Positions 5,611-26,245 of a DNA stretch of 55,732 nucleotides are shown here, one piece after another. The notes beneath the pieces were generated by a model that was given only the letters and a program-made list of their open reading frames with translations, was not told the DNA's origin and did not search any database. The stretch spans positions 1-55,732 of the forward strand of contig JANZZV010000012.1 in assembly GCA_026419195.1 (NCBI GenBank), given 5' to 3'. The stretch comes from Fervidobacterium sp. (lineage in GTDB: Bacteria; Thermotogota; Thermotogae; Thermotogales; Fervidobacteriaceae). Position 1 is the first letter of the stretch. Each line of letters opens with the position of its first letter. A program made the translations under genes and the position numbers.

Positions 5611-5655
5611 TTCAGATCACCTACCTCCAATTGTTTAGACAGTTCATTTGTTTAA

Positions 5656-5674
5656 TAGTTCAAAATATGAACTA
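5656..5674. promoter_or_regulatory. Perfect 7-5-7 palindrome TAGTTCAaaataTGAACTA, putative MarR operator
   Basis: Seen in sequence 46 nt upstream of the marR start. A third AGTTCA half-site lies at 5641-5646, and the site sits in the divergent marR/pckA intergenic region. Confidence 0.4.
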
Positions 5675-5857
5675 CCAATTTCTTTATTCTTTACTTATTA
5701 AGCGCGAAATACTTGATAAGAAAATGGGTTTTTGGACTATGTAAATCCTTTCACAACGATGTATAAGTATGCTTGTTTATGCTCCTGTTAACCAATCGTT
5801 TGCAAAGTTATAAAATAAGATATGTATTGTTAATATCAATTAAAGGGGGAAACGAAG

Positions 5858-7489: not shown

Positions 7490-7601
7490 TTATATAAATT
7501 CTGTGTTAATGTAATAGTTACTTTGTTGTTATTGTAATTAGTTAGATTTAGTATAAAATAAGAGTGTATCTAAAATATATCTTATTACAGGAGGGATGTA
7601 T

Positions 7602-8240: not shown

Positions 8241-8257
8241 GCTCCACAAAGTTTTAC

Positions 8258-8291
8258 AAAAAACCGTGAGGAAGAATCCTCACGGTTTTTT
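8258..8291. terminator. Bidirectional terminator between the peroxiredoxin gene and glgP
   Basis: AAAAAA-CCGTGAGG-aagaat-CCTCACGG-TTTTTT; the glgP stop overlaps the T-run. Confidence 0.65.
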
Positions 8292-10761
8292 ATTCTACTA
8301 CCTTTTTGGTTTTCCATATATCTTTTATATATTCTTCTATTGTTCTATCACTTGAGAACTTTCCACTTCTTGCAATGTTTAGTAATGACTTTTTATTCCA
8401 CTCAACTTGGTCCAAGTAGGTTTCATCTATCTTCTTGTGAGCTTTTTCGTAAGATTCAAAATCAGCAAGTAAGAAGTATTGGTCGGGCATAGGAGCGTAT
8501 TTTCCGTAAAGTAGGTTCTCGTATATGTCTACGAATAAATCTGGTTGTTCTTGAGAAAAGTAACCATTCCTGATCATATCGAGCACTTTTCTAATTTTTT
8601 CGTTTTCTAGATATATTCCAAATGGATTATAAATACCTTTTCTCCTTGCCTCTTCAATTTCCTCTGCTTTAAGACCAAATATGAATATGTTTTCTTCACC
8701 AACTTCTTGAAGTATTTCAATATTTGCTCCGTCCAAGGTACCAATTGTTAAAGCACCGTTTATCATGAACTTCATATTACCAGTGCCAGATGCTTCAGTA
8801 CCAGCTGTTGAGATTTGTTCGCTAATATTTGCCGCTGGAATGATTATCTGAGCAGCTGATACATTGTAATTTGGTATGAAAACAACTTTTAATTGTTCGC
8901 TTACTATTGGATCAGCGTTTATTACGTCGGCAACGCTGTTGATGAGCTTGATAATTAGCTTCGCCATTCTGTACCCTGGGGCAGACTTGCCTGCAAATAT
9001 GAATGTTCTAGGTACGTTTAAGTTATTTCCGTTTTTTATTTCGTTGTATAAATGAACAATATGCAATACATTTAGAAGTTGTCGTTTGTATTCGTGGATT
9101 CTTTTTACCTGTATATCAAATAATGTCTTAGGATCGATTGAGATGTCCAATTTTTCTTTTACATATTTCGCTAATCTTTCTTTGTTCCACATTTTTGCTT
9201 GAGCAAGCTTTTCGAGGAATCCTTTATCTTCAACAAAATTTTCTAATTTTCTCAACTCGTAAAGGTTTGTTATCCAACCATCTCCGATTCCTTCGGTTAT
9301 GAGTTTGGCAAGTGGTGGATTACACTCCAAGAGCCATCTTCTTTGTGTAACTCCGTTTGTTTTGTTGTTAAATTTTTCCGGATACGTTTCGTAGAAATCT
9401 TTCAGAACACTTTTTTTAAGTATTTCTGTGTGTAATTCAGACACGCCGTTTATTGAAAATGAAGCTATCGATGAAAGATTTGCCATTCTGACTTTCTTTA
9501 TATTTCCTTCTTCGAAAATTGACATATCAATGATCTTTTTTAGGTCGTTGTTGAATTTTTGACCAACTTCTTTCAAAAATCTGGCATTTATTTCCTCAAT
9601 TATTTGATAGTGTCTGGGAAGCATATTTTGAAGTAATGGCGCTTCCCACTTTTCAAGTGCTTCCGGCATGACTGTGTGGTTGGTATAAGCTATTGTGTTG
9701 CTTACTATTTTCCATGCTTCATCCCAGCCGTATCCTTCTTCGTCAAGTAATATTCTCATGAGTTCGGGAATTGCAAGCGCAGGATGGGTATCGTTAAGTT
9801 GTATGACCTCACTTTCGTGAAGGTTATCTAAGTTGTTACCGTACCTTCTTTTGTGTCTTCTGATTATGTCTTGCAAAGCAGCACTCACAAAAAAGTATTC
9901 TTGTTTTAGTCTTAATTCTCTACCCTGATAGAACGCATCGTTTGGATATAGCACTTTACAAAGTGTTTCTGCAAGGTTTTTTTCATGAACAGCTTTTTCG
10001 TAATTACCTTTCTCAAACTCGTTGAAATTAAACTCATTAACGGCTTTAGGATGCCACAGTCTGAGTACAGAGACTATTTCGCTGTTGTAACCAGTTATAT
10101 AAATATCATATGGGACCGCTAAAACTTCGTAGGTATCAATCCATCTAAATTTTAGTTTCCCTTCCGCGTCGAAATACGGTTCACTTTTACCAAAGAATTT
10201 GACTTTTACTGTTTCATGTGGTTTAGGAAATTCCCATGGATAACCATTTTTCAACCAATCGTCGGGAAGTTCTTTCTGAAAACCATTTTCGATTTCTTGT
10301 TTAAATAATCCGTATTGGTAACGTATTGTATAACCGTAAGAAAGATAGCCAAGAGTAGCTAAGGAATCAAGAAAACATGCAGCAAGTCTACCAAGGCCAC
10401 CGTTACCAAGCGCTGCATCTTCTTCTAATAAAGCAATTTCATCAAGTGTAATGTTGTATTTTTCCAAAAGTTTTTTGACTTCATCCTCAACCTTCAGATT
10501 GAGTATGTTATTGTATAAAAGTCTACCTATCAGGAATTCCATCGATAAATAGTTAACTATTCTTAGATCTTTCCTCTTATAAATTATATCCTCAGTGTTG
10601 AGCCATTTTTCCGCAATAATGTCTCTGATAGAGTAAGATAATGCAAAGAATTTTTGGATTGTTGTAGCGTAATCAACTTTCTCACCTAAGGAGTGATGCA
10701 TGTGATACTTGAATTGTGTCGCTAAATCACACTTCTTTCCATTCCTTGTCACTATCTGCAC
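8290..10761 (-). CDS. glgP: Alpha-glucan (glycogen/maltodextrin) phosphorylase
   Basis: Pyridoxal-phosphate site EASGTGNMKFMINGALTIGTLDGANIE. Alternative GTG start at 10752 (SD AAGGGGTG, 8-nt spacer). Confidence 0.9.
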   Translation of the reverse strand: MQIVTRNGKKCDLATQFKYHMHHSLGEKVDYATTIQKFFALSYSIRDIIAEKWLNTEDIIYKRKDLRIVNYLSMEFLIGRLLYNNILNLKVEDEVKKLLEKYNITLDEIALLEEDAALGNGGLGRLAACFLDSLATLGYLSYGYTIRYQYGLFKQEIENGFQKELPDDWLKNGYPWEFPKPHETVKVKFFGKSEPYFDAEGKLKFRWIDTYEVLAVPYDIYITGYNSEIVSVLRLWHPKAVNEFNFNEFEKGNYEKAVHEKNLAETLCKVLYPNDAFYQGRELRLKQEYFFVSAALQDIIRRHKRRYGNNLDNLHESEVIQLNDTHPALAIPELMRILLDEEGYGWDEAWKIVSNTIAYTNHTVMPEALEKWEAPLLQNMLPRHYQIIEEINARFLKEVGQKFNNDLKKIIDMSIFEEGNIKKVRMANLSSIASFSINGVSELHTEILKKSVLKDFYETYPEKFNNKTNGVTQRRWLLECNPPLAKLITEGIGDGWITNLYELRKLENFVEDKGFLEKLAQAKMWNKERLAKYVKEKLDISIDPKTLFDIQVKRIHEYKRQLLNVLHIVHLYNEIKNGNNLNVPRTFIFAGKSAPGYRMAKLIIKLINSVADVINADPIVSEQLKVVFIPNYNVSAAQIIIPAANISEQISTAGTEASGTGNMKFMINGALTIGTLDGANIEILQEVGEENIFIFGLKAEEIEEARRKGIYNPFGIYLENEKIRKVLDMIRNGYFSQEQPDLFVDIYENLLYGKYAPMPDQYFLLADFESYEKAHKKIDETYLDQVEWNKKSLLNIARSGKFSSDRTIEEYIKDIWKTKKVVE

Positions 10762-10807
10762 CCCTTTTCAAAGCATCAGAACCGTTTCCAATAGAAATCC
10801 AAATTAA

Positions 10808-10836
10808 AGTTTACACTATGTTTTGAAAAATGTCAA
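10808..10836 (-). promoter_or_regulatory. Candidate promoter for glgP
   Basis: Minus strand: TTGACA(10836-10831)-17 nt-TAAACT(10813-10808). Confidence 0.3.
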
Positions 10837-10896
10837 ATACATTATAAAGAAAGGAAAAATGCCACATAGTTTCAGATTCATACTCGAAAAGTCTTA

Positions 10897-11547
10897 TTAT
10901 CGCAACTTAGAACCTTTCCGTCTTGCGACTAACTCTGATATTATTTCATGCCACCCGACTTCCTTTTCTGACAATAAGACCGTTAAATGGTAAATTAAAT
11001 CTGCCAATTCGGACACAAGGTGTCTTTTATCATTTCCCATAGCAGCTAAAACGACTTCAATGCTTTCTTCCCCAAATTTCTTGGCTATTTTCTCTATTCC
11101 TTCGTTAAAGAGACGGGTTGTATAAGAACCTTCTGGTAGTTCCTTCTTTCGTTCATCGATTAGTTGTTTTAACTCGATTAAGAATTCCAAGTTCACAATT
11201 TCGTCGTTGTCCTCCTTACTTGAGTCGTGTAAGACTTTGAAAAAGCAAGTTCTTTTGTTTGTATGACATGCTACTTTGTCTGCCGGAAATTTTACTAAGT
11301 ACAATATTGCGTCCTCATCGCAGTCTTTCAATATTTTAACAACTTTCATAGTGTTTCCTGATTCCTCACCTTTTTTCCAAATTCTACCTTTCGAGCGTGA
11401 ATAAAAGTGTGCATAGCCAGTTTGTTTGGTCAATTCAAGTGCTTTTTGATCTGCGTATGCTAACATTAAAACTTCTTTTGTATTTATTTCCTGTACAATT
11501 ACTGGTATTAATAATTCATCATTTTGCATAATTACATCCTCCTTCAA
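10897..11547 (-). CDS. hisI: Bifunctional phosphoribosyl-AMP cyclohydrolase / phosphoribosyl-ATP pyrophosphatase
   Basis: 216 aa; cyclohydrolase motif (CHTNKRTCFF) in the N-terminal half, HisE-like C-terminal half; last gene of the his operon. Confidence 0.85.
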   Translation of the reverse strand: MKEDVIMQNDELLIPVIVQEINTKEVLMLAYADQKALELTKQTGYAHFYSRSKGRIWKKGEESGNTMKVVKILKDCDEDAILYLVKFPADKVACHTNKRTCFFKVLHDSSKEDNDEIVNLEFLIELKQLIDERKKELPEGSYTTRLFNEGIEKIAKKFGEESIEVVLAAMGNDKRHLVSELADLIYHLTVLLSEKEVGWHEIISELVARRKGSKLR

Positions 11548-11557
11548 TTTTTTGAAT

Positions 11558-12316
11558 TCAGTAGTTAATCCTAACTTTTATTCCATTATTTTGTAGAAAT
11601 TCCTTCAACTTTTGCAAATTAATCTTTTCAAAGTGCAATACAGATGCCATAAGTGCTGCGTCTGCACCTGCTGTGAGTATTTCCAATACGTGCTCCATTT
11701 TACCAGCACCACCAGATGCTATAACCGGAAGCTTTGTTAATGATTTGGCAAGACGTACTGTTTCTACATCGTAACCGTCTTGTGTACCATCTTTATCGAT
11801 GCTTGTGATAAGTAATTCACCTGCACCACGTTTTTCTACTTCGACGAGATAATCTTCGTACCTTATACCCGTTCTCTTGCGTCCAGATACTGTGAATACT
11901 TCATAACCAATGTCGGTTTTTTTCACATCCACAGCTACAACAACAGCTTGTAACCCAAAACGATCTGCGATCTGTGTTATCAACTTTGGATTTTCAACGG
12001 CTGCAGTGTTTATACTCACTTTATCGGCACCTTTGTATATCAGCTCAGAAGCGAGTTCCAAGGAGTTTATACCACCACCTACTGTAAAAGGTATATTTAT
12101 TTGCTCAGCTACTTTCTCAACAAGCTGGATCAAGGTTTTCCTTTTCTCATACGTGGCGCTTATGTCAAGGAATACTAATTCGTCGATGCCTATCTGTGCA
12201 TATCTTTTTGCAAGTTCTACAGGATCACCACCGTAAATTAAATTCTCAAATTGTTTACCTTTAACAACTACGTTATCTTTAACATCGAGGCAAGCTATGA
12301 GTCTCTTAGTCAGCAT
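11558..12316 (-). CDS. hisF: Imidazole glycerol phosphate synthase, cyclase subunit
   Basis: [14 protein letters not shown]... (beta/alpha)8 HisF signature, [12 protein letters not shown]. Confidence 0.9.
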
Positions 12317-13046
12317 AAAGGCTCATCTCCCTTAGTGTTATTCTTCCTTCATAGTACGCCCTACCAATTATTAGGCCTGTTACGTTGCTGTATTCTTTGC
12401 AGTAAGACTTGACATTCTCTAAGTCATAAACAGAACTTATCCCACCTGCTACAATGATTTTTAATTTAGTTTGATTTGCTAAGTTCTTTGTAATTTTTAG
12501 ATCTCTTCCTTTCAGTGTTCCATCAGCTTCTACGTCTGTGTGAATTAATTGTTCTATACCAAGTGCTTCAAGTTTTGTAAGTAATTTTTCAAAAGTTATT
12601 TTTTTACTAATCTTCCAGCCGTTTGTTTTTATGTTACCCTCGGAGTCAGTATCCAGCGAAAAGATCACTTCTATTCCATTTTCAATGAGCTTACTTACAA
12701 TCTCTTCGTTTTTAAGTACCAAACTTGTCAACACCTGCCTTTTGAAACCAAGATTGTAGAGCTTAATTGAATATTCAAATGTTCGGATACCTCCGCCAAG
12801 TTGTATGAATTGTGAAAGACCACAGCGTGATATTTCAGTGATTATTTCATAATTCTTATCACTACCATCTATGGCTTTTGACAAGTCGACAATATGAACT
12901 AAATTCAGTCCGTTCTCCAAGAAACGTTCGATTTTTCTCAATATTTTCTCTTTTCCTGTTTCATAGACTATAGCTTGTTCTTTTTTTCCATTTATCATAC
13001 GTACGATGTTACCATTGTATATATCTATAGCCGGTATGACTAACAT
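12306..13046 (-). CDS. hisA: ProFAR isomerase
   Basis: [16 protein letters not shown] start, typical of HisA; overlaps hisF by 11 nt. Confidence 0.85.
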
Positions 13047-13657
13047 TTTATCACCTCACTAAGTAGTGATAGACCATCTGTATGACTTTTTTCTGGGTGA
13101 AACTGTATTCCAACTATGTTTTTATACTTAATGATTGCTGGGATTTTCTCTCCATCGTACTCGGTTTCTGCTATGGTTAATTCTTTGTCACAGACTACTT
13201 TGTAACTGTGGACGAAGTAAAAATAATGGTTGTTAAACTTCGAGATTCCACAATTTGTTTCTTGCAAAAATGTAATTTGGTTCCAACCAATGTGCGGTAA
13301 AATTTTTGATTTTAGTTTGATGACATTTCCCTTTATCAACTTAAGTCCTTCGGATTCTCTGTCAGTGCTGTTAAATTTTACCTCTTCACTTTTTTCAAAT
13401 AGAAGTTGCATTCCAAGACAGATACCCAAAAGTTTTCCTCCACTTTCAACGTGAATTTTTATATACTCATCGAAGTTTAGTCTCTTGAGAGATTCCATAG
13501 CATCTTGGAAGTGACCAACACCAGGAAGAATTAATACTTCGTAGAATTTCTTTGTGCTTTGTTGTATAATTTCAACCGACTCGATACCTACTTTCAGCAG
13601 AGCCCTATAAACATTCATAACATTACCAGGGACGATGCCTACAAGCCCGACTTTCAC
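13040..13657 (-). CDS. hisH: Imidazole glycerol phosphate synthase, glutaminase subunit
   Basis: Class-I GATase (GICLGMQ, HPE). The tracker start at 13717 would overlap hisB by 64 nt. A GTG at 13657-13655 overlaps the hisB TGA (GTGA) and is preceded by AGGGGG (13664-13659), giving the canonical VKVGLVGIVPGN N-terminus. Confidence 0.8.
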   Translation of the reverse strand: MKVGLVGIVPGNVMNVYRALLKVGIESVEIIQQSTKKFYEVLILPGVGHFQDAMESLKRLNFDEYIKIHVESGGKLLGICLGMQLLFEKSEEVKFNSTDRESEGLKLIKGNVIKLKSKILPHIGWNQITFLQETNCGISKFNNHYFYFVHSYKVVCDKELTIAETEYDGEKIPAIIKYKNIVGIQFHPEKSHTDGLSLLSEVIKC

Positions 13658-14256
13658 ATAATTACCCCCTTCGTTGAGAGCGTTGTATTCGAAGGTTTTA
13701 ACGCCATGTTTAAGCATAAACCGAATGATTTAAAAACACATTCAGCAACATGATGGTTGTTCTTTCCATTCAGTTTTCTTATGTGAAGCGTTGTAGCGGA
13801 ACTATTCACAAATGCTTTAAAAAATTCCTCCAACAATTCCGTTGCAAAGTTTCCTATGTTCGATACTGTAAAATCTACGTTAAATTCCAAATACTGCCTT
13901 CCAGATAGATCAATCGCACTCATAATTAATGCATCATCCATGGGTACAATGCAATAACCAAATCTTGCAGTTAAGTTGTAATCAAACAAGTTCTTTATTG
14001 CCGTGCCAATTACTATCGCTGTGTCTTCAACTGCGTGATGTAAATCTACATGTGTATCAGCATGAAACTCAGTTATCTCGATTGACAGGCCACAATATTT
14101 TGAAAGAGTTTCCAAAAGATGATCAAAAAAGCCGATTCCTGTGCTACCTGTAAATACAGACTTTTGTGCAGTACAGGATAATCTCAAGATTATAGATGTT
14201 TCTTTAGTGGTCCTCTTAACAGTACAGCTATTCTCGAAAACATCTATCTCGACCAT
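13654..14256 (-). CDS. hisB: Imidazoleglycerol-phosphate dehydratase
   Basis: IGPD motifs (HHxxE, metal-binding repeats); its start overlaps the hisC stop. Confidence 0.9.
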   Translation of the reverse strand: MVEIDVFENSCTVKRTTKETSIILRLSCTAQKSVFTGSTGIGFFDHLLETLSKYCGLSIEITEFHADTHVDLHHAVEDTAIVIGTAIKNLFDYNLTARFGYCIVPMDDALIMSAIDLSGRQYLEFNVDFTVSNIGNFATELLEEFFKAFVNSSATTLHIRKLNGKNNHHVAECVFKSFGLCLNMALKPSNTTLSTKGVIM

Positions 14257-15299
14257 TACGATCCCCCCTTGTTTGATTTGATTGTTCTTATTAGAATGTC
14301 TTTTACTAAATCGTTTTCTTGTGATTTCCCGATGGAAATTCTGACTCCTTCCTTGAATTTTCTTACGGTGACTTTCTGGTTTTTTAATTTTTCGAAGATC
14401 ATCTCTATTTGACTGTTATTTGCTAAGATAAATATAAAATTTGCTACCGAGTCAGTTAAATGAAAGCCATTTTCTAAAAACGTCTTTTTCATTCTCTCGC
14501 GTTCTTGATTTATCCATGTTATCTTTTCTTTAAAATATCCTAAGTTTTCGAGCGAAGCTAAAGCTAAAAGCTGCGACAGGTAAGAAACGTTGTAAGGTAA
14601 TCTGATTGAATTGTAGTAATCAATCAGTTCCTCATTTGCCAAAATATAGCCAATACGTTGAGCGGCTAAGCAGAAAGCTTTTGAGAAGGTGCGTATGATT
14701 ATCAAATTTTTAAATTTGTCCAACAACTCTACACACGAGTCACCTGCAAACTCGTAATATGCCTCATCAACAACTATTATTGCTCCAGTTGATAGAAGAT
14801 ACTCGATTTCACTTTTATCAAACAAATGTCCAGTCGGGTTATTTGGATTCGGTAAGAACAAAACACTTTTATGGTCTAACTTCTTTGTAAGCTCATCAAT
14901 GTCCAGCTTGTCGTACTTTTCACCCAACAGAGGTACAGTGGACAGATTCACTCCCGTTGCACAAGCAAATATAGAATAACAGCTGTAAGTAGGTGGACAG
15001 ATATAAAAGCTGAAAGTTTTGAACATGAGAAATATGTAGTAGATAATTTCATCTGCTCCATTTCCTATACTTATTCTTTCCTTAGGTTGAGATGTGTATT
15101 GCGATAAAGCTTGCAATAGCTTTTCGCACGGGGAATCATAGTAAATTTTGAGTGCACTAAGGTCAAGCTTTTTATACGCGTAGTCTAAAATCTCTTTAGG
15201 GAAATCGAACGGATTCTCGTTCAGGGCAAGATATATCTCTGTACGTTTCTCTGGCTGATACTTTGGTAGCATTTTGATTTTCATTCTGGCTGATTCCAT
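14256..15299 (-). CDS. hisC: Histidinol-phosphate aminotransferase
   Basis: Class-II aminotransferase fold; PLP lysine context (TFSKAF). Confidence 0.85.
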   Translation of the reverse strand: MESARMKIKMLPKYQPEKRTEIYLALNENPFDFPKEILDYAYKKLDLSALKIYYDSPCEKLLQALSQYTSQPKERISIGNGADEIIYYIFLMFKTFSFYICPPTYSCYSIFACATGVNLSTVPLLGEKYDKLDIDELTKKLDHKSVLFLPNPNNPTGHLFDKSEIEYLLSTGAIIVVDEAYYEFAGDSCVELLDKFKNLIIIRTFSKAFCLAAQRIGYILANEELIDYYNSIRLPYNVSYLSQLLALASLENLGYFKEKITWINQERERMKKTFLENGFHLTDSVANFIFILANNSQIEMIFEKLKNQKVTVRKFKEGVRISIGKSQENDLVKDILIRTIKSNKGGS

Positions 15300-16588
15300 A
15301 TTCCCAACTCCTCAAGTCGAATTTGGACAGCCATAGCATGAGCTTCAAATCCTTCAAGTCTTGCAAGCTTGACGTACTCACTTCCAGTTTTCAAAATTTC
15401 TTCGCTACTTACTTGTGTTATAAATATTTTTTTGAGAAAATCATTCACAGTTAAGCCAGAAGTAAATCGTGCAGTTGAGAATGTTGGTAACACATGGTTT
15501 GGTCCTATGCCATAATCTCCTATCGGCTCACTTGAAAAGTTACCCAAAAATACTGAGCCTGCGTTTTTGATAAGTTTTAATAATTGATATGGTTCTTGGG
15601 TGACTATTTCAAGATGTTCCGGGGCAATATTGTTAGATATTTCTACAGCCTGGAGAAGATTTTCAACAAGAATTATGTAACCATTTGTTTCCAGAGATTT
15701 TATTGCCCGTTCTTTGTTTGGATTGTTTAGTTTTTGAATATAGTACTGAATATTTTCCTGAACCGATGTTGCCAACTTCTCAGAAGTGGTGACAAGCACG
15801 CACATAGCATCTTCATCGTGTTCAGCCTGAGATAACATATCACAAGCTATGAAACGTGGATTTGCTGTCTCATCGGAAATGATTAGTACCTCACTTGGAC
15901 CGGCTATACTATCGATTCCGCAATCTTGGATTATTAGTTTTTTGGCTAAAGCAACGTATTTGTTCCCAGGACCAACGATCTTGTCAACCTTATAAACTGT
16001 TTTTGTTCCATACGCGAGTGCTGCAATCGCATGTGCTCCTCCCATCTTGTAGATTTCGCTTATCCCTATTCTTTTAGCTATGTAAGTTATAAACTTTGGT
16101 ATCTTACCCCTTTCATCAGGTGGTGTTGCTATCACTATACGATTAACACCAGCAATTTTGGCAGGAACCGCACACATCAATAGGGTAGAGAAGTAGACTC
16201 CTTTCCCAGATGGTACGTATATTCCGATACTGTCAATTGGTACGTTCATATACCCTAAGAATGAACCATTTTCGGTAAGTTGCCATTTGTTTTTTTCTAT
16301 TTGCAAAATATGGTATCTTTCTAACCTTGATATGAAGTTATCGACTATGCTCTCAAATTCAGGTTCAACTGTAACTTCTTCAATTTCAGTATCTGAAACT
16401 CTCAGCATGTCTAAGGTCAACTTGCATTTTTCGTATCTGTTAATATACTCAATCAACGCATCATCACCATTTGTTTGTATATTTTTTATTACAGATTTGA
16501 CGAATTCTTCAATATCTGAAACGTTTCTTCTTCTGCTTTCAATAATTTGAAAGATCTGGCTTGGTGAAGGAAACCTTATCACGTTCAT
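15281..16588 (-). CDS. hisD: Histidinol dehydrogenase
   Basis: 435 aa; HisD signature region (IAGPSEVLII, QAEHD). Confidence 0.9.
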   Translation of the reverse strand: MNVIRFPSPSQIFQIIESRRRNVSDIEEFVKSVIKNIQTNGDDALIEYINRYEKCKLTLDMLRVSDTEIEEVTVEPEFESIVDNFISRLERYHILQIEKNKWQLTENGSFLGYMNVPIDSIGIYVPSGKGVYFSTLLMCAVPAKIAGVNRIVIATPPDERGKIPKFITYIAKRIGISEIYKMGGAHAIAALAYGTKTVYKVDKIVGPGNKYVALAKKLIIQDCGIDSIAGPSEVLIISDETANPRFIACDMLSQAEHDEDAMCVLVTTSEKLATSVQENIQYYIQKLNNPNKERAIKSLETNGYIILVENLLQAVEISNNIAPEHLEIVTQEPYQLLKLIKNAGSVFLGNFSSEPIGDYGIGPNHVLPTFSTARFTSGLTVNDFLKKIFITQVSSEEILKTGSEYVKLARLEGFEAHAMAVQIRLEELGIWNQPE

Positions 16589-16610
16589 ATCACAACCTCC
16601 TTTGTCTTTA

Positions 16611-17234
16611 TCAACTGACTTGATTATTCAAACCATTCCAAAGCCTGTCAAAAAGTGCTTGCAAGTCAATGCGTTTTGTTCTATAAGCAACATCATTTAC
16701 GCAAACCATCGCGGATATTCTGTAAATTTGTTCTATTATCACTAATCCATGTTCTCTTAATGTCTTACCGGTTTGAACTATATCGATAATTGCGTCCGCA
16801 AGTCCAACAACAGGTGCAAGCTCCACAGAACCGTTCAATTTTATAAGCTCAGCATCAACATTTCTTGATTCAAGATATTTCTTAGCGCTCACCGGAAATT
16901 TAGAAGCGATTTTAACACGTCGACCGTTGAATCTGAAACCTTGAAAACTTGCAAGAACCATGCTACACAAACCAAAAGGTAATTTCATTGGTTGAATCAG
17001 AGCCAACTGTGATTCAACTATCGAATCAGTGCCACAAATCCCAACATCAGCTATTCCCCAATGTACGTATATCGGTACATCAAGTGGTTTTACAGAGAGC
17101 AATTCGATTCTCTCATCGCAATCTCTTAAAACCAGTTTTCGTTCCAACTTTTCTTCAAACTTGTACCCACATTTTTCAAGGTATGCGATACTTTCGTTTT
17201 CAAGTCTTCCTTTAGCCAAAGCTATTCTGAGCAC
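16611..17234 (-). CDS. hisG: ATP phosphoribosyltransferase, short form
   Basis: The tracker's 241-aa ORF has 34 extra N-terminal residues. A GTG at 17234-17232 preceded by GGAGGTGG (17244-17237) gives the canonical MLRIALAKGRL start and a 207-aa HisG-S, which needs HisZ. Confidence 0.85.
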   Translation of the reverse strand: MLRIALAKGRLENESIAYLEKCGYKFEEKLERKLVLRDCDERIELLSVKPLDVPIYVHWGIADVGICGTDSIVESQLALIQPMKLPFGLCSMVLASFQGFRFNGRRVKIASKFPVSAKKYLESRNVDAELIKLNGSVELAPVVGLADAIIDIVQTGKTLREHGLVIIEQIYRISAMVCVNDVAYRTKRIDLQALFDRLWNGLNNQVS

Positions 17235-17253
17235 ATTACCACCTCCGATAGAT

Positions 17254-18093
17254 TTAGTATCGAATTTCTGAAAGAAAGATCGTTCCACCCACACCATGCA
17301 AGAATTCATTAACTTTATATTCACCGCCAGCTGCAACTAGTTTAGAACTTTTAGTATCAAAGAGTGCGAACGTTAATCCACAATATTCTTCTGTTGTTCT
17401 GGCGAGTGAAAAGTCAACCTCAACAACTACGTTCTCAAACCCCTCTAAACTTCTTATTACCGTTTCCAATTCTTTTCTGTAAGGTTCTTTAATGGGAAAA
17501 TCTTGCCAATCTTCAAGTCTACGTTTTGAAAAGCTGTTTTTAACTACTTCAACAAGTTTTGATACGTCTATTTTTCTCACACTACCAAGTACTTCGAGCT
17601 CTGAGAAGTCTTTTTTATCAAGCATCTCCAATATTTCAGTCTTTATGTCTTCAGAAACATCTTTGATGAGATCTTCTAGCACTCTCGCATCGCTGAGTTC
17701 CAAGATAAGGTCTGAATTTGAATATTCTGTATATGTACCTACTATGATCTTGATACACTCTAATAGCTCATAAATCCCACCAGGGATAATCTCAAGTCCA
17801 ATTTCATACCGAGATTTCAAATTTCCAAAATTATCAAAAAAGTAAACATGTCCGTCATACCAGAATCTATGTGGCTGTCTTTGATTTTCAACATTTTCAA
17901 GTGCTTTGACGTGCTCACAAATAAACTTTGTAAAATCCTTCCTCAATTTAAAAATCTCACCAGATTTCACCATGAATGTTACACCTGACACTAATTCTTT
18001 TAAATCTTTTACTCGTTTAATATCCGGCTGTGTAAACTTTTCAAAATTTTCGCTTACCCGTTTGTAAAATGCTCGAAAAATAGTATCGATCAT
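17254..18093 (-). CDS. hisZ: ATP phosphoribosyltransferase regulatory subunit (HisRS paralogue)
   Basis: HisRS-like catalytic core without an anticodon-binding domain, directly upstream of short-form hisG. ATG 18093 is 8 nt from GGAGG (18107-18103); the tracker's GTG 18102 abuts the SD. Confidence 0.75.
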   Translation of the reverse strand: MIDTIFRAFYKRVSENFEKFTQPDIKRVKDLKELVSGVTFMVKSGEIFKLRKDFTKFICEHVKALENVENQRQPHRFWYDGHVYFFDNFGNLKSRYEIGLEIIPGGIYELLECIKIIVGTYTEYSNSDLILELSDARVLEDLIKDVSEDIKTEILEMLDKKDFSELEVLGSVRKIDVSKLVEVVKNSFSKRRLEDWQDFPIKEPYRKELETVIRSLEGFENVVVEVDFSLARTTEEYCGLTFALFDTKSSKLVAAGGEYKVNEFLHGVGGTIFLSEIRY

Positions 18094-18111
18094 ATTTTTC
18101 ACCTCCGGACA

Positions 18112-18150
18112 ATTTAAAAATAAAAGGGGCTCATCGTATCGATGAGCCCC
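18112..18150 (-). terminator. Intrinsic terminator of the his leader (attenuator terminator)
   Basis: Minus strand: GGGGCTCATCG-ata-CGATGAGCCCC (18150-18126) followed by TTTTATTTTT (18125-18112); it ends 5 nt before the hisZ SD. Confidence 0.7.
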
Positions 18151-18175
18151 TTGTGTTTACTCCACCATTAAACCA

Positions 18176-18277
18176 TCAAAAAAGCCCAGGTGGAGTAACA
18201 CCCGGGGCATTTTGATGGTGATGCAGATTTATTATTGAATTATTTTGTAAATCAATTTGTGCACAAAGGCAATCCAT
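18176..18277 (-). CDS. his operon leader peptide (33 aa, MDCLCAQIDLQNNSIINLHHHQNAPGVTPPGLF)
   Basis: ATG 18277 preceded by AGAGGTG (18289-18283); three consecutive His codons CAT-CAC-CAT at 18223-18215; TGA at 18178-18176. It lies between the promoter and the terminator hairpin. Confidence 0.55.
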   Translation of the reverse strand: MDCLCAQIDLQNNSIINLHHHQNAPGVTPPGLF

Positions 18278-18304
18278 ATTTACACCTCTAAGCATTTTTT
18301 AAAT

Positions 18305-18348: not shown

Positions 18349-18615
18349 TTAAATAATGAACTTTCGGACCGAAGTATTTAGTTTTTCGGCTATCATTGCT
18401 AAATTTTGAGCTGATGTATTGACATGTTTAGCGTTTGTACTCTGCTCTTTAAAATCTTTACTTATTTTTTCGATTGAATTAGCTATGACCATAATTGAAT
18501 TGGTTGCGTTAGCCATGGCAGAACTCATTTGTTCGGTTGCTGCACTCTGTTCTTGGGCACTTGAGGCTAAACTTTCTATCATTGAACTAATGCTTTCAAC
18601 TTCTTTAAGTATTTT
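18349..18615 (-). pseudogene. Detached 3' end (C-terminal ~90 aa) of a methyl-accepting chemotaxis protein gene
   Basis: The frame is open from 18705. ...ILKEVESISSMIESLASSAQEQSAATEQMSS...LNTSVRKFII matches the conserved MCP C-terminal coiled coil that is missing from the truncated MCP at 24488-26245. There is no SD or start of its own. Confidence 0.7.
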
Positions 18616-18627
18616 GTAAAGTATTCT

Positions 18628-19074
18628 TTGACAACAATATCTTCTAATAATCCACTTGTTATTGATTTTGTTCTGCGAATTACGGAGTCGGTTGTTAAAA
18701 AAAGATTAAAGAAGAATCTGTGTTCGGCAGGTGTGGAAGATTTTGCTGTTGATGTAGAAGGAAACATATACCCTTGTTTTGTCTTTATAGGACGGTCAGA
18801 AGATTTAATTATGGGAAATGTAAATGATAATATTGAAGAAAAAACTCAGAATTTTAGGCAAAAGATACTTGAATTTAAAGAAATTACATATGAGAGAATT
18901 AATTCTTGTGCAAATTGTATAGCAAAAGGAATTTGTTCCCAATGCATAGCAGCAAGTTATTTAAAGTTTAAGAATTTCGATTGTGTTGATAATAATTTAT
19001 GTTCTATCAATAAGAAAATAATTGAAAGGATAGGGTTGTTCCTAGTGGACAACTATCTGGTGAATAAAATTTAG
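18628..19074 (+). pseudogene. Detached C-terminal SPASM-domain portion of a radical-SAM/SPASM peptide-maturase gene
   Basis: Cys pattern CSAG...YPC...CANCIAKGICSQC...CVDNNLC is typical of SPASM auxiliary clusters. There is no SD; the tracker 'start' is a TTG. It is the missing continuation of the rSAM fragment at 23633-24538. Confidence 0.65.
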
Positions 19075-19130
19075 AACTTATAAGGAAAAAAGTTTTTTAT
19101 CTTTTCTTGGTGTCAGGGGAGGGCTAATAA

Positions 19131-20321
19131 TTGGTTTCTGACAATTTTAAACCCATTGCTTATCCAGATATTGAGAAGTATGAGTTGTTTAAAAAGAAAG
19201 GCAATATAATGTATTGTATTGGAACCATTGAAAATGACTCGTTTATAATTGTTCCAAATGAGCAGGTGAGTCTTATCTTAAGACTTTTGAAGTTAATGAA
19301 TGGAAAATTAAGTGTCAGTGATATTCAAAAATTTGCTAAAGAGAATAATATGTCAATAGATATAAAAAGTTTAATAACTAAACTTGGAAGGGCAGGTTTA
19401 ATAAAAAATTTCAATGAACATTACAAATTCAGTGAACTACAACTTTTTTCGTTTAGTATGCTTTCGATAGACATTTCTTTGTTTTGTAATTATATTAAAA
19501 AAAGAGGCATGTTTCTAACTATTATTTTAATTTTAATGTTAATTGTTACAATTCTATACGTTACAATATTTTTACCATCGAGAATAAGTTTTAATTTCAA
19601 TAATATTATTAAATATGACAATTCCTACTTGAAAAATATAATTTTAAGTTTAATATTTACAATACCATGCTTTTTAGTACATGAACTTGGGCATATTATT
19701 TTTGCCACGAGATATGGTCTGACTTCTAATAAATTAAATATAGGGTTATATTATTTCGTAATCCCTATAGTTTATGTAAAGATTCAAGGTTTATATGCTC
19801 TTCCTCCTTTCAAAAGAGTGAGAGTATTAATAGCTGGAATTGTGTTTAACTTTATTTTTGGCTTGAGTTGTCTATTTATGTGGTATATTTTTGAGATAGA
19901 AATATTTAAAACTTTGTTTTTTGTAAATATTCAAATAGCATTCCTAAATTTAACACCTTTCACATTTAGCGATGGATACTTTATATTTTCTATAGTCATT
20001 GGAGAACCAAATTTGCGATATCAGTACTACAAATTTTTGGCTGGAATAGTTAATAAAAAATTTCGTTACAAACTAACATTTAAGCAATTGATATATATTA
20101 TTTGTAGTATTGTGATAACTATACTTTACATTATTGTTCAAGTTAAAGTACTTGACAATGTTTTATATGAAACTTTACAGAAATATGGATTTGGATTTAG
20201 CCAAGAAAGGAGATTTTTTATTTACACTGCAATGAATATACTTATTGTTTCTGCTTTATATCTATTCATTTACAAAAGAAGCATTAAGTATTTAAATGCA
20301 ACTTTGGCTAAAGATTTTTAG
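19131..20321 (+). CDS. Polytopic membrane metalloprotease of the site-2-protease (M50)-like type, with a ~100-aa N-terminal soluble domain
   Basis: TTG start with GGGGAGGG SD at 7 nt. HELGH within a TM helix plus a downstream NLTPFTFSDGYF segment (S2P LDG-like motif); many hydrophobic helices. Confidence 0.55.
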   Translation: MVSDNFKPIAYPDIEKYELFKKKGNIMYCIGTIENDSFIIVPNEQVSLILRLLKLMNGKLSVSDIQKFAKENNMSIDIKSLITKLGRAGLIKNFNEHYKFSELQLFSFSMLSIDISLFCNYIKKRGMFLTIILILMLIVTILYVTIFLPSRISFNFNNIIKYDNSYLKNIILSLIFTIPCFLVHELGHIIFATRYGLTSNKLNIGLYYFVIPIVYVKIQGLYALPPFKRVRVLIAGIVFNFIFGLSCLFMWYIFEIEIFKTLFFVNIQIAFLNLTPFTFSDGYFIFSIVIGEPNLRYQYYKFLAGIVNKKFRYKLTFKQLIYIICSIVITILYIIVQVKVLDNVLYETLQKYGFGFSQERRFFIYTAMNILIVSALYLFIYKRSIKYLNATLAKDF

Positions 20322-20361
20322 ATGATTGAATAAAAAGTATTTCTAACTTTTAAACTTGTAA

Positions 20362-20436
20362 ATGTCCGATTTATGTATCAACTGTAACTTTAAATGTGGG
20401 AATTTAAGTACATCGTGCAGCATACAACAATTCTAG
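20362..20436 (+). other. 24-codon Cys-rich small ORF (MSDLCINCNFKCGNLSTSCSIQQF), speculative RiPP precursor
   Basis: Four Cys in 24 aa, 40 nt downstream of the protease gene. No SD, so it is weak. Confidence 0.12.
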
Positions 20437-20596
20437 AAATAAATGAAATATATAAATCGGTGGTATAAAAGCAAAGAAATTAGATTGATTTCATTAATAG
20501 TATACTTTCACAGAAAAGTAATTTAATATATTAGAATAAATCCTGTTTTTAAACAACAAATAATTTTCTAAAAGTTATCTGTGTTTTTTTATTTTT

Positions 20597-20697
20597 CTTG
20601 ACTTTATCAGTTCAGAGGTATTTATAGACTAACAAAAAATAACAATCTCTGGACTTTGTCAGTTAGGAGGGGTTTTTGAGCTAACAAAAAATTACGG
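20597..20697. repeat. Two tandem ~50-bp degenerate copies of the IS left-terminal sequence
   Basis: Unit 1 is 20597-20646 and unit 2 is 20647-20697; each contains GACTTT(a/g)TCAGTT..GAGG...CTAACAAAAAAT. A third copy is the IS left inverted repeat itself. Unit 1 carries a promoter-like TTGACT-17-TTTATA. Confidence 0.45.
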
Positions 20698-22176
20698 CTC
20701 TTTGTCAAGAGATGGGGTGGGTATTCTGAATGCCCACCTTTTCAGTTTTATCAACCAAACATTTAATGTAATATATACCTCTTACAGGTAAATAATTTTA
20801 AAAACCCAATATTGTCTTTCCCCGCTACTTTTGCGGGTTTTAAATATTCTCTTTCTAACTCCTAACTACCACAACTGTATAAAATCCTCTTTCTAAATCT
20901 CTCAAAATTTCTATATCCAAATGCATTTCTCTTTAAAACTTTTATCTTGTTGTTAAAACCTTCTGTTGCACTATTTGTATACGGAACATCAAAAGAATTT
21001 ACTATCTCTGAAAACCAGTTCCTAAAAACCTTTATACATCTGCAAAATTCAGAAAGGCCACTTCTCTCTGCTGCCTCTATCCACTTTTTTAATTCAACTC
21101 TCGCTTCTGCTGAATTACTGCTTTCCAAAACTTTTCTAAATTCTTCCTTGAGTCTATGCGCTTTCCTTAAATCCTCACTATACCAAAACATCACTTCTAA
21201 CTCTTCTCTCTGCTCTGCTGTAAGTTCTTCATAAGACTTTAACAACAATTTCCTGCTCCTCTTGAAATATTTTCTCAAATTATCTTCTAATTCTTTCTGC
21301 ACTCTTTTCCTTACTCCTTCTGTCGCCCAATAAACATACCTTGTAAAATGAAATTTGTCTATCACTATCTTCGCATTTTTAAAATATATCTTTGCTATCT
21401 CCACAAATTGTCTCCACATATCACATATGAAATACTTTACTTTATCCCTTCCTTTTAACCCTTTAAAATATTCAATCAAAACATCTTGTCTTCTGTCTTT
21501 TAAAATTTCTACTATCTGCTTTTTCACAGGGTCCACAATTATACACTGATATTTAGCTCCACCTGCATTTCCTTTGAATTCATCTATGCATATCGCCTCA
21601 GAAGAAAAATCCTCTATTTTCTTGGTAGGACTTACCTTATCAAATAACCTCATAACTGTTGTAACTGATACATTTGTCTGTCTTGCTACCTCTTTCATAC
21701 TGCTCAAACTACTAAGCTGACTTATAATGTATGCTGCTAGTCTATTTGTCATTCTTTGACGCTTGCCCAAAAAATTTATGTGTTCAAAAAACTTCTTTCC
21801 ACATTTTTTGCAAACATATCTTCGCTTTCTTAAAACTAAATATGTTTCCTTACCCATTATTGGTACGTCCTTTACTCTTTGGACACGATAATCATGTATC
21901 TTGCTTGTGATACTACCACATTTAGGACACTCGTGAGGTTTTTGCATCTGACTTATGTGGAGTTCTACTTCCTTTTCGTTTTCTACTACTTGGTGGAGAA
22001 TGATATCTTTTGATTTCAAAAGTTCAGTGATATAATTATGATTGAGCACTTATTCTGGATGCCTCCTTTCTTTTGTGTGTTTTTTTATCCCTAAAAACAA
22101 TTTTAATTATAGCAGGCATTCAGAATAAGTGCTATATTTTTTCTTTTCTTACCACCCCAATATTTATTATAGAGCC
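20696..22176 (-). mobile_element. ISL3-family insertion sequence (1481 bp)
   Basis: IRL GGCTCTttgtcaagagaTGGGGTGGgTATTCTGAATGCC (20696-20734). IRR (reverse complement from 22176) GGCTCTataataaatatTGGGGTGG...TATTCTGAATGCC. GCAT(C/T)CAGAATAAGTGCT is repeated at the right end. No target-site duplication is visible (aaaattac vs gattttgc). Confidence 0.65.
20862..22049 (-). CDS. ISL3-family transposase
   Basis: 395 aa; N-terminal zinc-ribbon (CPKCGS...CKKCGKKF) and DDE transposase core typical of the IS204/IS1001/IS1165 group. GTG start with AAGGAGG upstream. Confidence 0.8.
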
Positions 22177-22366
22177 GATTTTGCTTGCTGATGAACCGAC
22201 AGGAAATTTAGATGAAGCTAATGAAGAGCAGATATTATCTATCTTTGAGAATATCAATAAAGAACTTCAAACCACAATAGTTGTGGTTACACATAATGAA
22301 AAGGTGGCAAAGAGAGCACAGAAAGTAATTACTATATCAAACAAAAAAATAGTTCAGGTGAGATAA
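22177..22366 (+). pseudogene. 3' fragment of an ABC-transporter ATPase (Walker B onward) truncated by the IS
   Basis: [12 protein letters not shown]...VVTHN begins exactly at the IS right end. The tracker ORF 22073-22366 starts inside the IS; the N-terminal two-thirds of the ATPase are absent. Confidence 0.7.
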
Positions 22367-22384
22367 GGAGGAAAGCAACAATCT

Positions 22385-23611
22385 ATGAGTTCAATAGTTG
22401 AGTACATAAAGTTTTCTCTGTCGAGCATAAAGAACAACAAAATAAGATTTGTACTGAGCATGTTTAACATAACCTTGGGAGTATTTTTGGTCACGGTTAT
22501 AATTATTATGGCAGGAAGTTTCAAGGATAAAATGTATACAGAAATGAAGGTTTCTGATGAAAAAGTCATAAGCATAGTGCAAGGCAGGCCTGAAAGCCGA
22601 GCAAGTTATTATTATAGTTATCCTATTTTTGATGATTCTCATATAGACATGATAAAAAAAATCTCAAGTTTGAAAAATGTTGTCGGGGTAAAAGTGTGGT
22701 CGCCTGATAGCATTACGGCTGTAAATAGTAAAGGTCAGAGAAAAAGCGTCTTTACTCGTATTATAGGAACGAAAAAACTCTTTTTAGACAATTTAGGTGC
22801 AATTATAGAGCATGGACGAATTTTTAAAAAAGGCAACGAAGTGGTTATAGGTGCAAAGATAGCAGAAATAGGGAGTATTCAAGTTGGCGATAAGATTGAA
22901 ATTGAAGACAGCAACAGAAAGTATATATTTACAGTATGTGGTATTCTCAAACTGCAAAAGCCACAGATGTTTTCAGATACCCCTGATTTGATCAATTTTA
23001 TGATAGCAGCACCTGTTGATATAGATGCATTTAGCAATAAAAAGTATGGGATGATAAGTGCAAAAGTCAATAGTATCAATTTTCTAGAAAGTACATGTAA
23101 AGAAATAGAAAGAATACTGAATAGCGACAATTTAATAAAGAGTGAGTTAAAAGGATGGGGTTTGAGTGTTATTGCAGTGTCAAGAATGGACGTTCTCAAA
23201 GCAATTAATAACTGGTTTAGGTATATATATTTCTTTATACTAGTTGTAATTATAATGGTATCTTTAATTTCTGTAGCTAACATTACAAACACAATGATTA
23301 CAACAGTATATGAAAGGTATCAAGAAATAGGAATTATGAAAGTTGTCGGTGCATCAAATTTACAAATAGCTGCATTTTATATTTTTGAATGTGCCATTAT
23401 TGGAATTTTAGGAACATTTATAGGGTTAATTCCAGGAATCTTGCTGTCAAGATTACTAGTTTATATAATTAAGTGGAATTATATTACTGACAATACGCTG
23501 CTATTTATAACCTGTACTGTGATGGGACTAATTTCCCCACTGTTAGCAGGCTATTTAGCTTCGCGAAAAGCAGTGAAATTGCAGCTAATAAATGCTTTGT
23601 ACAAAGAATAA
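22385..23611 (+). CDS. ABC-transporter permease, MacB/FtsX family
   Basis: 408 aa; N-terminal TM helix, large periplasmic domain and C-terminal FtsX-like 3-TM bundle. AAGGAGGAAAG SD. Confidence 0.8.
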   Translation: MSSIVEYIKFSLSSIKNNKIRFVLSMFNITLGVFLVTVIIIMAGSFKDKMYTEMKVSDEKVISIVQGRPESRASYYYSYPIFDDSHIDMIKKISSLKNVVGVKVWSPDSITAVNSKGQRKSVFTRIIGTKKLFLDNLGAIIEHGRIFKKGNEVVIGAKIAEIGSIQVGDKIEIEDSNRKYIFTVCGILKLQKPQMFSDTPDLINFMIAAPVDIDAFSNKKYGMISAKVNSINFLESTCKEIERILNSDNLIKSELKGWGLSVIAVSRMDVLKAINNWFRYIYFFILVVIIMVSLISVANITNTMITTVYERYQEIGIMKVVGASNLQIAAFYIFECAIIGILGTFIGLIPGILLSRLLVYIIKWNYITDNTLLFITCTVMGLISPLLAGYLASRKAVKLQLINALYKE

Positions 23612-23632
23612 GCACAGGGAGGACAGAAGTTT

Positions 23633-24538
23633 ATGAGTGTTCATATTTATAACCTAGACGATAAGTATATTTTGTTTAATCATGAACAGTTAAAATACTT
23701 TTTGCTTCCACCAAAGCTTGGAGAGCAGTTGTTAAAGCTTGACGAGAATGAGAAAGAGAGATTGATAAGCAGTTTAAAAGAAAATTTTTACTTCAATGGG
23801 AGTAATGAAATTACTCAGGAAGAAAAAGAAGATGATGTTTGTTCTAGGTTAATATTAGTGATATCGCAAGCATGTAATCTTAGTTGTTCTTATTGTTACG
23901 CTCACGGAGGTTCATACGGCAAACAGAGTGGAAACTTTTTTATGGATTTTGAAACAGCAAAAAATTCAGTTGTTTTCTTTACAAAAACTTTTGCCAAGGG
24001 TATAAAGTCAATTCAGTTTTTTGGTGGAGAGCCACTACTTAATTTAGATTTAATTGAAAGATTGTGTTATTGGGTCAACGAATACTATTCATCTATTGGA
24101 TTAAATACACCAAAATTTTCTATTTCGACAAATGGAACATTAATAAATGAAAAAGCAATAGAACTTTTTAACAGTTATAATATAGGGGTAACAGTAAGTC
24201 TTGATGGAGATAAAGGTATCAATGATGAGCATAGAAAATACAAAAATGTTAAAAGAAGTGTTCATGAAGACGTTGTAAAAATAATTAACCTTATGAACAA
24301 GATAAGAAATTTTAAATTAGGCATAGAAATGACAGTTACAAATAAGCATATAGAAAACTTTAAAGATAATCCAGATTTTGCATTGGGGTTGGTAAAACAT
24401 TTTCACAATTTAAAAATTGATTTTATACATTTTGCTCCGATAATTGGTGAATGGAATTCTAATTTAACGATTGTAGATGAAAAATCATTAGCAAATTTTT
24501 TTGATGATATTGATAAGACTGTTTTTAGCTTCTTCTGA
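23633..24538 (+). pseudogene. N-terminal ~300 aa of a radical-SAM/SPASM peptide maturase (radical SAM core only)
   Basis: CNLSCSYC (CxxxCxxC) with a ~70-aa N-terminal extension (possible RiPP-recognition element). AGGGAGGA SD. The ORF runs out in sequence antisense to the MCP gene; the SPASM continuation is at 18628-19074. Confidence 0.65.
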
Positions 24539-26245
24539 TTGTCTTGCTGCTTGTTCTATGACTTCTACGCTTTCGTTTGTAGCTATACTTGCTTTTTCAG
24601 AACCTTGTTGTATCTCCCTAAGTATTTCTCCTATCTTGTTAGTTGAATTCTTACTTTCTTCGGCTAACTTTCTTATCTCATCGGCAACAACTGCAAAACC
24701 ACGACCTGCTTCACCAGCTCTTGCGGCTTCAATGGCTGCGTTGAGTGCAAGTAGGTTCGTTTGTTCAGCTATAGAATTTATGGTATCAACTATTTCTTGA
24801 ATGTTTCTTGCTTTGTTACTTAATTCACTAACTACCTGGGCAGTTATTATCGATTTTTCTTTCGTTTTCAATATTGTTTGCGAAATAGCGTTTATCTTGT
24901 CTTCCCCATCCTTAGCAGCCATGTTTACCTGCGTTGATTTTTTGGAGAGCTCTTGTGCCGATTTAGCGACATGTTGGGCACTTGCGGTAATTTCCTCTAT
25001 ACCGCTGTTAACTTCTTCGACAGAAGCAGATGAGTTTTGCAGCGATGAGTTTATCTCTTCTATTTCTCTTGATAAATCAGCGATGGTTTTGTCTAAACTT
25101 TGGGAGATCTTTTGCAAGTCTTTTGATGAAGAATTTACTAAGTTTGAGTCTTGAAGAATTTCGGAAAGTATTATTTTTAAGTTAACTTTCATATTCTCCA
25201 GAGAATTTGCCATTTTCGCTATCTCATCTTTACCTTTAACTGAAAATTCAACATTCAGATTTCCTGTGCCAAATAATTCTATCTTTTCTGCAAGAACTTT
25301 CACAGGTTTTACTATCAAGCTGCTGACAAAGAGGATAAGGATAGCGATGGAAACTATTACAATACCGAAGATTGTTACTATCAACACTATAGAAGTTCGA
25401 ACGCGGGCTAAGTAGATATCTTCTGGTACAGAAATCAGCACTGACCAGTCACTTTCACCTTTTAAAGGCGAGTAAAAAACGTAAGCGTTTTTTCCATCTG
25501 GTGTTTTAACTATGCTTTTTCCTTGTTTTTTTTGCTTAATATCCTGCCATATCTTTTCAAAACCTTTGCCTCTTACATTGCTGATGTTTAAGTTCATTAC
25601 ATAATCTTTATTCTTATGGTATATAACCTTTCCAACACGATCGATTACAATGATTTCCCCAATTTCCAATTTCAGCTGATCGACTAATTTGTTCAGATAT
25701 TCAAGGTCAAGACCTAGACCGAACAATCCTACGATTTTGTTTTCCATATTCTTGACAGCACACGTCACAACGAAAATGTTTTTTCCCGTACTTTTAGATA
25801 CGAGTCCTTCGCTTACGAATACTTCCTTACCTTCTATCATAATTGCTTTGAAATAATCTCTGTCGGAAACATTCGATACAGCACCTGTAGTGTTTGGGGC
25901 TTTACCATCTGGATAAGCTAACAAATACATAAGAAGTTCTTCTCTTTTCTCAGCCCGTGGCTTCAATTCTAAATTGACAATTTCTTGATATTCCCCGGAT
26001 TCCAAAGCCTGAATAATCGATTTTTCTTCGGCAAAAGCTTTTGCTTCCTTTATTTCACTGGTAATCCATTTTTCAAGTATTGCAGCTGAAGAAGTTGCTA
26101 CTTGAGAGAGTGTCTGTTCTTGCCATGAATTTGTCGATATTTGGAGTCTAATGTAAACCAGTATGGCAAAGACAATAAGTAATATAACAATTGGCAAAAG
26201 GATGGTAACTAAAAGCTTTTGCCTAAGACTTTTGAAACCTTCCAT
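24488..26245 (-). CDS. Methyl-accepting chemotaxis protein lacking its last ~90 aa
   Basis: Likely start ATG 26245 (AAGGGGG SD, 8 nt); the tracker start is 26287. Has TM1, a Cache-like sensor, TM2, HAMP and the signalling domain ([34 protein letters not shown]). It ends ~45 aa after this motif where ~140 aa are expected. Confidence 0.8.

Follow-up and report, generated by a model that had tools for sequence, protein, structure and literature searches.

In the 55,732-nt contig of a Fervidobacterium sp. metagenome-assembled genome (MAG) that was analysed in full and is called the window hereafter (JANZZV010000012.1, positions 1 to 55,732), the gene of a methyl-accepting chemotaxis protein (MCP) is split by 5,896 bp of foreign DNA. 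This insert carries an insertion sequence (IS) and part of a chromosomal gene cluster of Caldicellulosiruptor, putatively for a peptide antibiotic, in circularly permuted order, opened within the cluster's own radical S-adenosylmethionine (rSAM)/SPASM gene. We consider it likely that the IS generated a circle of Caldicellulosiruptor DNA and that this circle integrated by one illegitimate crossover, which left both genes dead. The insert is best read as the scar of a recent gene transfer from Bacillota to Thermotogota and not as a working mobile element.

An earlier sequence-only reading had placed two MCP and two rSAM fragments at the ends of a segment of about 5.9 kb, and both pairs were confirmed by the map of open reading frames (ORFs) and a Pfam scan. 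It had also held that one crossover explains both split genes. This stands: excision restores both genes exactly, and the insert is a circular permutation of the native gene order. The proposed size proved correct, and the bounds, given as about 18620-24515, could be sharpened to 18613-24508. The features of the locus, in window coordinates, are as follows.

18349-18612, minus strand: 3' part of the MCP gene, 87 codons (ILKEVESISS...VRKFII) and stop; MCPsignal profile positions 132-169; adjoins the his operon leader
18611-18612: AT dinucleotide, left copy; crossover point (native rSAM GATG[AT]TTTG, restored MCP site AAGT[AT]ATTG)
18613-19074, plus strand: 3' part of the rSAM/SPASM gene, codons 293-445 and stop (153 codons); SPASM; 100% identical to the native contigs L008 and L030
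19131-20321, plus strand: intact gene of an M50-like intramembrane metalloprotease, 396 aa; weak resemblance to HExxH proteases of the daptide/YydH type from clusters for ribosomally synthesized and post-translationally modified peptides (RiPPs)
20322-20695: native Caldicellulosiruptor spacer 3' of the M50 gene; matched by L008 and L030 up to its last 8 nt
20696-22176, minus strand: ISL3-family IS, 1,481 bp; transposase gene at 20862-22049(-)
22177-22366, plus strand: 3' remnant of an ABC ATPase gene, last 62 codons, Walker B onward; directly joined to the IS end
22385-23611, plus strand: intact gene of an FtsX/MacB-type ABC permease, 408 aa; identical to Caldicellulosiruptor morganii WP_045169447.1
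23633-24508, plus strand: 5' part of the rSAM/SPASM gene, codons 1-292, CxxxCxxC core
24507-24508: AT dinucleotide, right copy; common to the chromosome site and the circle site
24509-26245, minus strand: 5' part of the MCP gene, 579 codons; dCache, HAMP and MCPsignal domains (positions 13-137 of 172 in the MCPsignal Pfam profile)

Two split genes and the joints between them

The truncated MCP (P0001, which is MCX7654720.1) is labelled 'MAG: Fervidobacterium sp.', as are the flanking his and aro proteins, and the flanks of the insert hold core genes (IF-2, glycogen phosphorylase, his, aro). From 5286 to 18292 the window is 99.35% identical to a Fervidobacterium-like contig from another sample (L010). 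In silico removal of 18613-24508 joins the two MCP parts into a 666-aa protein (...KNSLIN/ILKEVESISS..., the slash marking the joint here and below), which aligns without gaps to the 669-aa homologues P0002 and P0003 (KNSLINILKEVEGISS). The match across the joint is likewise gapless with more distant Thermotogota MCPs. Closing the excised segment on itself yields a 445-aa rSAM/SPASM protein that is 100% identical to the native protein P0139. The fragments of each pair are thus contiguous on single homologues, and the restored lengths replace the approximately 680 and 460 residues estimated earlier.

The ORFs on opposite strands that overlap at the joints are mere read-through of truncated ORFs into foreign DNA. 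The MCP 5' ORF continues for 6 codons into rSAM antisense sequence, with its stop at 24488(-), and the rSAM 5' ORF runs for 9 codons into MCP antisense sequence, to 24538. The SPASM-domain ORF as called spans 18628-19074(+).

Close relatives had been expected to carry an intact MCP gene at this locus. Orthologous intact 669-aa MCPs do lie directly upstream of hisZ-hisG-hisD in three contigs (L011-L013), which is the window's own synteny; the corresponding site of a near-identical strain was not recovered. Reconstructed in silico, the empty MCP site reads CAACTTCTTTAAGTATATTGATAAGACTG. The split MCP is without its last 87 residues, and its gene is predicted to be dead. A second, shorter MCP with an MCPsignal domain (495 aa) is encoded at 44205-45692(-), and chemoreceptor redundancy may make the loss of the disrupted MCP tolerable.

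Alignment of the junctions to the intact homologues pinned the crossover to the AT that both sites share. The native rSAM gene reads GATGAT/TTTGTAAAG at this point, the right joint in the window GATGAT/ATTGATAAG and the left joint AAGTAT/TTTGTAAAG. Two BLAST blocks (window 22177-24516 matching L008 2386-4724, and window 18611-20723 matching L008 4716-6826) meet at one point of the rSAM gene on L008, and therefore the insert ends adjoin at a single point of the native gene. Both joints are conservative, with zero nucleotides lost or gained, and only AT is common to the two sites. In the flanking sequence, the restored MCP site and the native rSAM site agree at 15 of 28 bases, compared with a mean of 7.8 in a null of AT-anchored random site pairs (P~0.004), a difference that is only suggestive, since the flank size was chosen after seeing the data.

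The absence of an integrase and of a clean att-type repeat, already noted in the sequence-only reading, holds at this resolution: no integrase near the joints, no shared att core and no duplicated homologous segment at both ends were found. Rfam and tRNA scans of the locus returned nothing, and the insert is therefore not a tRNA-targeted island. Because the terminal identity amounts to only 2 bp, excision is not expected; the insert should be unable to excise by homology, and this host is unlikely to contain it as a free circle.

The donor cluster and the probable closure of a circle

In an exact-protein look-up, seven contigs matched the FtsX permease (22385-23611). On L003, L004, L008 and L030 the cluster is found in its unpermuted native order, namely a BtrH_N protein (346 aa), a 44-aa peptide, the ABC ATPase (228 aa), FtsX (408 aa), rSAM/SPASM (445 aa) and the M50-like protease (396 aa), and this order is partial in the C. 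morganii chromosomes L001 and L002. The permutation in the window is therefore proven and not inferred. The source names of the FtsX, ABC, BtrH_N and 44-aa proteins are C. morganii (WAM34897-34900, WAM34984), and the metagenomic native contigs run leftwards into C. morganii chromosomal sequence. A second IS copy at the left ends of L004 and L008 was considered and rejected, as these ends continue as C. morganii chromosome.

With cluster proteins from C. morganii and flanks from Fervidobacterium, the insert is therefore Bacillota DNA in a Thermotogota chromosome, essentially undiverged. Window 22177-24508 followed by 18613-20695 is colinear with L008 2386-6794, with 1 mismatch in 4,409 bp. The GC content is 0.30 in the insert versus 0.36 in both flanks.

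The ORFs within the insert are limited to rSAM, M50, the ISL3 transposase, the ABC remnant and FtsX. None of them is an integrase or recombinase, replication or transfer gene of the insert's own, and no plasmid or phage match for the insert was found; an origin from either was rejected. The small circular element proposed from sequence alone is supported as a circular molecule, but it is no plasmid or dedicated mobile element; it is a fragment of a chromosomal RiPP cluster, foreign to the host phylum. The contents proposed for the circle (rSAM-SPASM, M50, repeats and IS, FtsX) were also correct, except that the ABC ATPase is present with its last 62 codons only (annotated as MCX7654717.1, 61 aa). 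The first ABC nucleotide kept, window 22177, aligns with L008 2386, part-way through the gene of the 228-aa protein (L008 1889-2575), and the window contains nothing from further upstream; the ABC gene is not just interrupted by the IS. Its 5' 497 bp, and with these most of the ATPase, never came into the host, nor did BtrH_N or the precursor.

Judged by its protein profiles, the native cluster looks like an rSAM/SPASM RiPP system, ranthipeptide-like, with a maturase nearest to PapB and SCIFF. The best NCBIfam match of the maturase is PapB (192 bits versus a cutoff of 340), followed by the SCIFF maturase (157 versus 425). It reaches the curated cutoff of no named NCBIfam equivalog, and is related to these families while a member of no named one. 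The cluster further includes, on the basis of profiles, a BtrH-like protein, an intramembrane HExxH protease and an ABC exporter. The native precursor peptide MIEKNF...TPASGCGCGGLCR, also written MIEKNFLEELKEVLETQDLDLSEIETLEEIVTPASGCGCGGLCR, is not in the window copy, and no Cys-rich precursor is encoded beside the maturase there, since nothing upstream of L008 2386 is present. Because the rSAM gene is split and both the precursor and the ATPase are missing, the cargo in the window is predicted to be non-functional.

The two sequenced C. morganii genomes have their copy of this rSAM gene interrupted elsewhere, at the equivalent of window 24422, by a different IS (DDE_Tnp_1_6; L001 12037-13758, L002 12037-13759), and have lost the SPASM and M50 part. 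The RiPP cluster is a recurrent IS target that is decaying in its own host, C. morganii. On L030, from one metagenome, an IS605 OrfB/TnpB-like (Cas12f-like TNB) gene at 443-1723 lies upstream of the native cluster, beside a DUF6364-PIN pair, as a further sign of a mobile-element-rich donor locus.

The ends of the ISL3 element are fixed by five identical 1,481-bp copies with different flanks (contigs L014-L018). Its terminal inverted repeats are GGCTCTTTGTCAAGAGATGGGGTGG and GGCTCTATAATAAATATTGGGGTGG, starting with GGCTCT, and the transposase comprises Zn-ribbon, HTH and DDE_Tnp_ISL3 domains. In the window, the 8-bp flanks on the two sides are unlike (AAAATTAC versus GATTTTGC) and show no target duplication; this is therefore not a simple insertion. 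Coming from M50, the native contigs L008 and L030, which are independent of each other, enter the same IS and break off after 27-53 nt of it. In the native population the IS thus follows M50 at a distance of about 375 bp, and its M50-side end in the window lies within 2 nt of the native position. At its opposite end the IS of the window is fused to L008 2386, midway along the ABC gene, forming the joint TATTATAGAGCC/GATTTTGCTTGC. This anatomy indicates that the circle was closed by the ISL3 element.

A pair of imperfect direct repeats of 48 nt each (20596-20643 and 20648-20695; 77% identity) runs up to the very edge of the IS and is also found in L008 and L030. Each contains a stretch (CTTTGTCAG.. 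and CTTTATCAG..) that resembles the IS terminal repeat GGCTCTTTGTCAAG, and the repeats may represent a favoured target site of ISL3 elements or what is left of former IS ends. Similar flanks accompany other copies of the IS (AAATTAAC, AAAATAAC), perhaps reflecting a target preference of the AAAAT type.

Proposed history and its alternatives

The anatomy of the insert suggests a path of three steps. First, in a Caldicellulosiruptor, the far end of the ISL3 element 375 bp downstream of the ranthipeptide-like cluster would have become linked to a point midway along the ABC gene. This could have happened by homologous recombination between the element and a second direct copy inserted in the ABC gene, or by an intramolecular or aberrant transposase reaction, two routes that are indistinguishable from the joint. 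Either would loop out a circle of at least 5,896 bp with the order ABC' (3' end), FtsX, rSAM/SPASM, M50, spacer and IS. Second, this circle, without replication or integration genes, would have entered a Fervidobacterium by transformation, vesicles or another route. The third step, borne out by the sequence of both joints, is one conservative reciprocal crossover between the rSAM site of the circle and the MCP site between the his and aro operons. It is best read as illegitimate recombination guided by patchy microhomology, neither site-specific nor transposase-mediated.

Several observations weigh against this history. The insertion is seen in a single MAG contig, and the junction ORFs MCX7654714, -17, -19 and -20 occur in no other assembly of the collection; exact-protein look-ups of hisD, the 301-aa rSAM fusion ORF, P0001 and an aro gene returned no other contig. 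An empty site from a near-identical strain was not recovered among the relatives or in the following scans. L010 (Logan SRR7039830), whose position 1 corresponds to window 18292, ends 57 nt short of the MCP stop codon, and the aro side of its sample is also fragmented (L029, 3.9 kb, too short for an empty-site test). A scan of genome contigs with the restored MCP found distant MCPs only (27-37% identity), a 29-mer from the MCP side of the joint has no exact match in JGI metagenomes, and a protein search with the junction-spanning 143 aa yielded one unrelated fragment only. The 29-mer of the IS-to-ABC joint is likewise absent from JGI metagenomes, and this joint was not found in Caldicellulosiruptor data. 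Furthermore, the M50-side flank of the IS (window 20686-20695) is AAAAAATTAC in the window versus AAAATAAC in native L008 and L030, that is, 3 differences in 8 nt (2 nt and a substitution) versus 1 in 4,409 shared bases. Finally, the IS is a collapsed repeat in L014-L018, and the insert may be larger, with two IS copies. The size of 5.9 kb is a minimum, for which the contig path through the multicopy IS at 20696-22176 was taken as deposited.

The strongest alternative, although we hold it to be unlikely, builds on this last point. It assumes the same topology and a larger molecule, in which two ISL3 copies flanked extra DNA, be it a plasmid or a longer Caldicellulosiruptor segment, that the assembler collapsed. 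Assembly of the IS elsewhere as stand-alone contigs of about 1.48 kb and the breaks of native contigs inside it would fit such a collapse. However, the deposited contig is continuous, its simplest closure is a self-consistent circle, and no other foreign DNA is present in the window.

Less probable still is an assembly chimera of Fervidobacterium and Caldicellulosiruptor reads, with an insertion that exists in no cell. A chimera would account for junction ORFs unique to one MAG and its single contig, for the near-complete identity (~100%) of the insert to DNA from a genus that has been reported in habitats of this kind, and for a contig that crosses a multicopy IS. Yet joints of 2 bp are too short for any k-mer graph to join, and two reciprocal joints at the same nucleotide of both genes, without loss or gain, are not expected of random chimeric reads. 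Moreover, both flanks belong to one Fervidobacterium locus, as in the orthologous MCP-his synteny.

With similarly little confidence we consider a far broader claim, according to which IS-excised circles would be a general interphylum shuttle for chromosomal genes in hot springs, captured by conservative 2-bp exchange at patchily similar sites via a host activity so far unrecognised in this role. Candidates for this activity are a trans-acting serine-type recombinase or strand exchange by a topoisomerase or reverse gyrase. If this were true, the insertion would be one visible instance of a recurrent pathway and not a one-off accident.

It is very improbable that a trans-acting site-specific recombinase integrated the circle, for example a serine recombinase with a 2-bp crossover dinucleotide, even though the fully conservative exchange, its 2-bp overlap and the above-chance similarity around the core would suit such an enzyme. 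Neither the insert nor the sequence next to it holds a recombinase gene, informal inspection noticed no dyad symmetry at either site, and both sites fall within unrelated coding sequences, with no second instance of the site known. Insertion of the segment by the ISL3 transposase as a composite transposon or translocatable unit can practically be dismissed: an intact ISL3 element does lie inside the segment with a non-native flank at one end, but the outer joints fall within the rSAM gene and 2.1-2.3 kb away from either end of the IS, the insert ends show no inverted repeats and no 8-bp target duplication, and there is one IS copy only. Junction anatomy thus rules out transposase-mediated integration, and a transposase may have acted in circle formation only.

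Comparison with known systems

IS26 translocatable units are IS-generated circles that carry adjacent DNA. The circle proposed here resembles IS-generated circles in that one IS copy is combined with an adjacent chromosomal segment, and in that one IS end retains a near-native flank while the other is found at a distant site without target duplication. It differs from the IS26 units by its ISL3-family element and by its integration, which would have taken place neither via the IS nor beside an IS copy, but 2 kb away in a cargo gene by a 2-bp crossover. The window holds a single IS copy because the circle would have integrated through this cargo gene and not via the IS. For the ISL3 family itself, circular intermediates have been reported, as have circles with cargo, among them the fosB3 circle (PMC3812183).

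Campbell-type integration of phages, plasmids or suicide vectors similarly involves one reciprocal crossover and leaves a circularly permuted insert between the halves of the target gene. In contrast to these systems, the present case has no att site, integrase or homologous segment. The identity consists of 2 bp plus patchy similarity, which would make the event illegitimate and effectively irreversible. Homology-facilitated illegitimate recombination is a microhomology-dependent joining during the uptake of foreign DNA. As here, its joints fall at a very short identity within patchy similarity; unlike there, no homologous anchor is present, the substrate would be a circle and the product is reciprocal.

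Old, ameliorated genes are the usual basis on which transfer between Bacillota and Thermotogota is inferred. Between Caldicellulosiruptor and Fervidobacterium, earlier work has inferred the exchange of transposases, those of ISL3 and others. In this context, Cuecas et al. (2017, PMC5398504) found the ISL3 transposases of F. nodosum to be closest to those of Caldicellulosiruptor, which involves the same donor and recipient genera and the same ISL3 family as the insert described here. Whereas their cases are inferred old IS transfers, with amino-acid similarities of 91-93%, the non-IS cargo in the window matches over 4.4 kb at 99.98% identity, and both of its joints are preserved.

The four 'partial' genes of the MAG (MCX7654714, -17, -19 and -20) find their explanation in this insertion, which also illustrates that such arrivals can be dead on arrival, with the cargo incomplete and the host chemoreceptor destroyed. 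Since donor sequence, recipient site and both joints are kept to the base, the physical transfer route is directly readable, and the case offers a concrete and testable model of the way in which chromosomal genes that are not mobile could pass from one phylum to another in communities of thermophiles. IS-generated circles and the Campbell topology are both already known; what is new is a natural, nucleotide-resolved case that combines the two across phyla.

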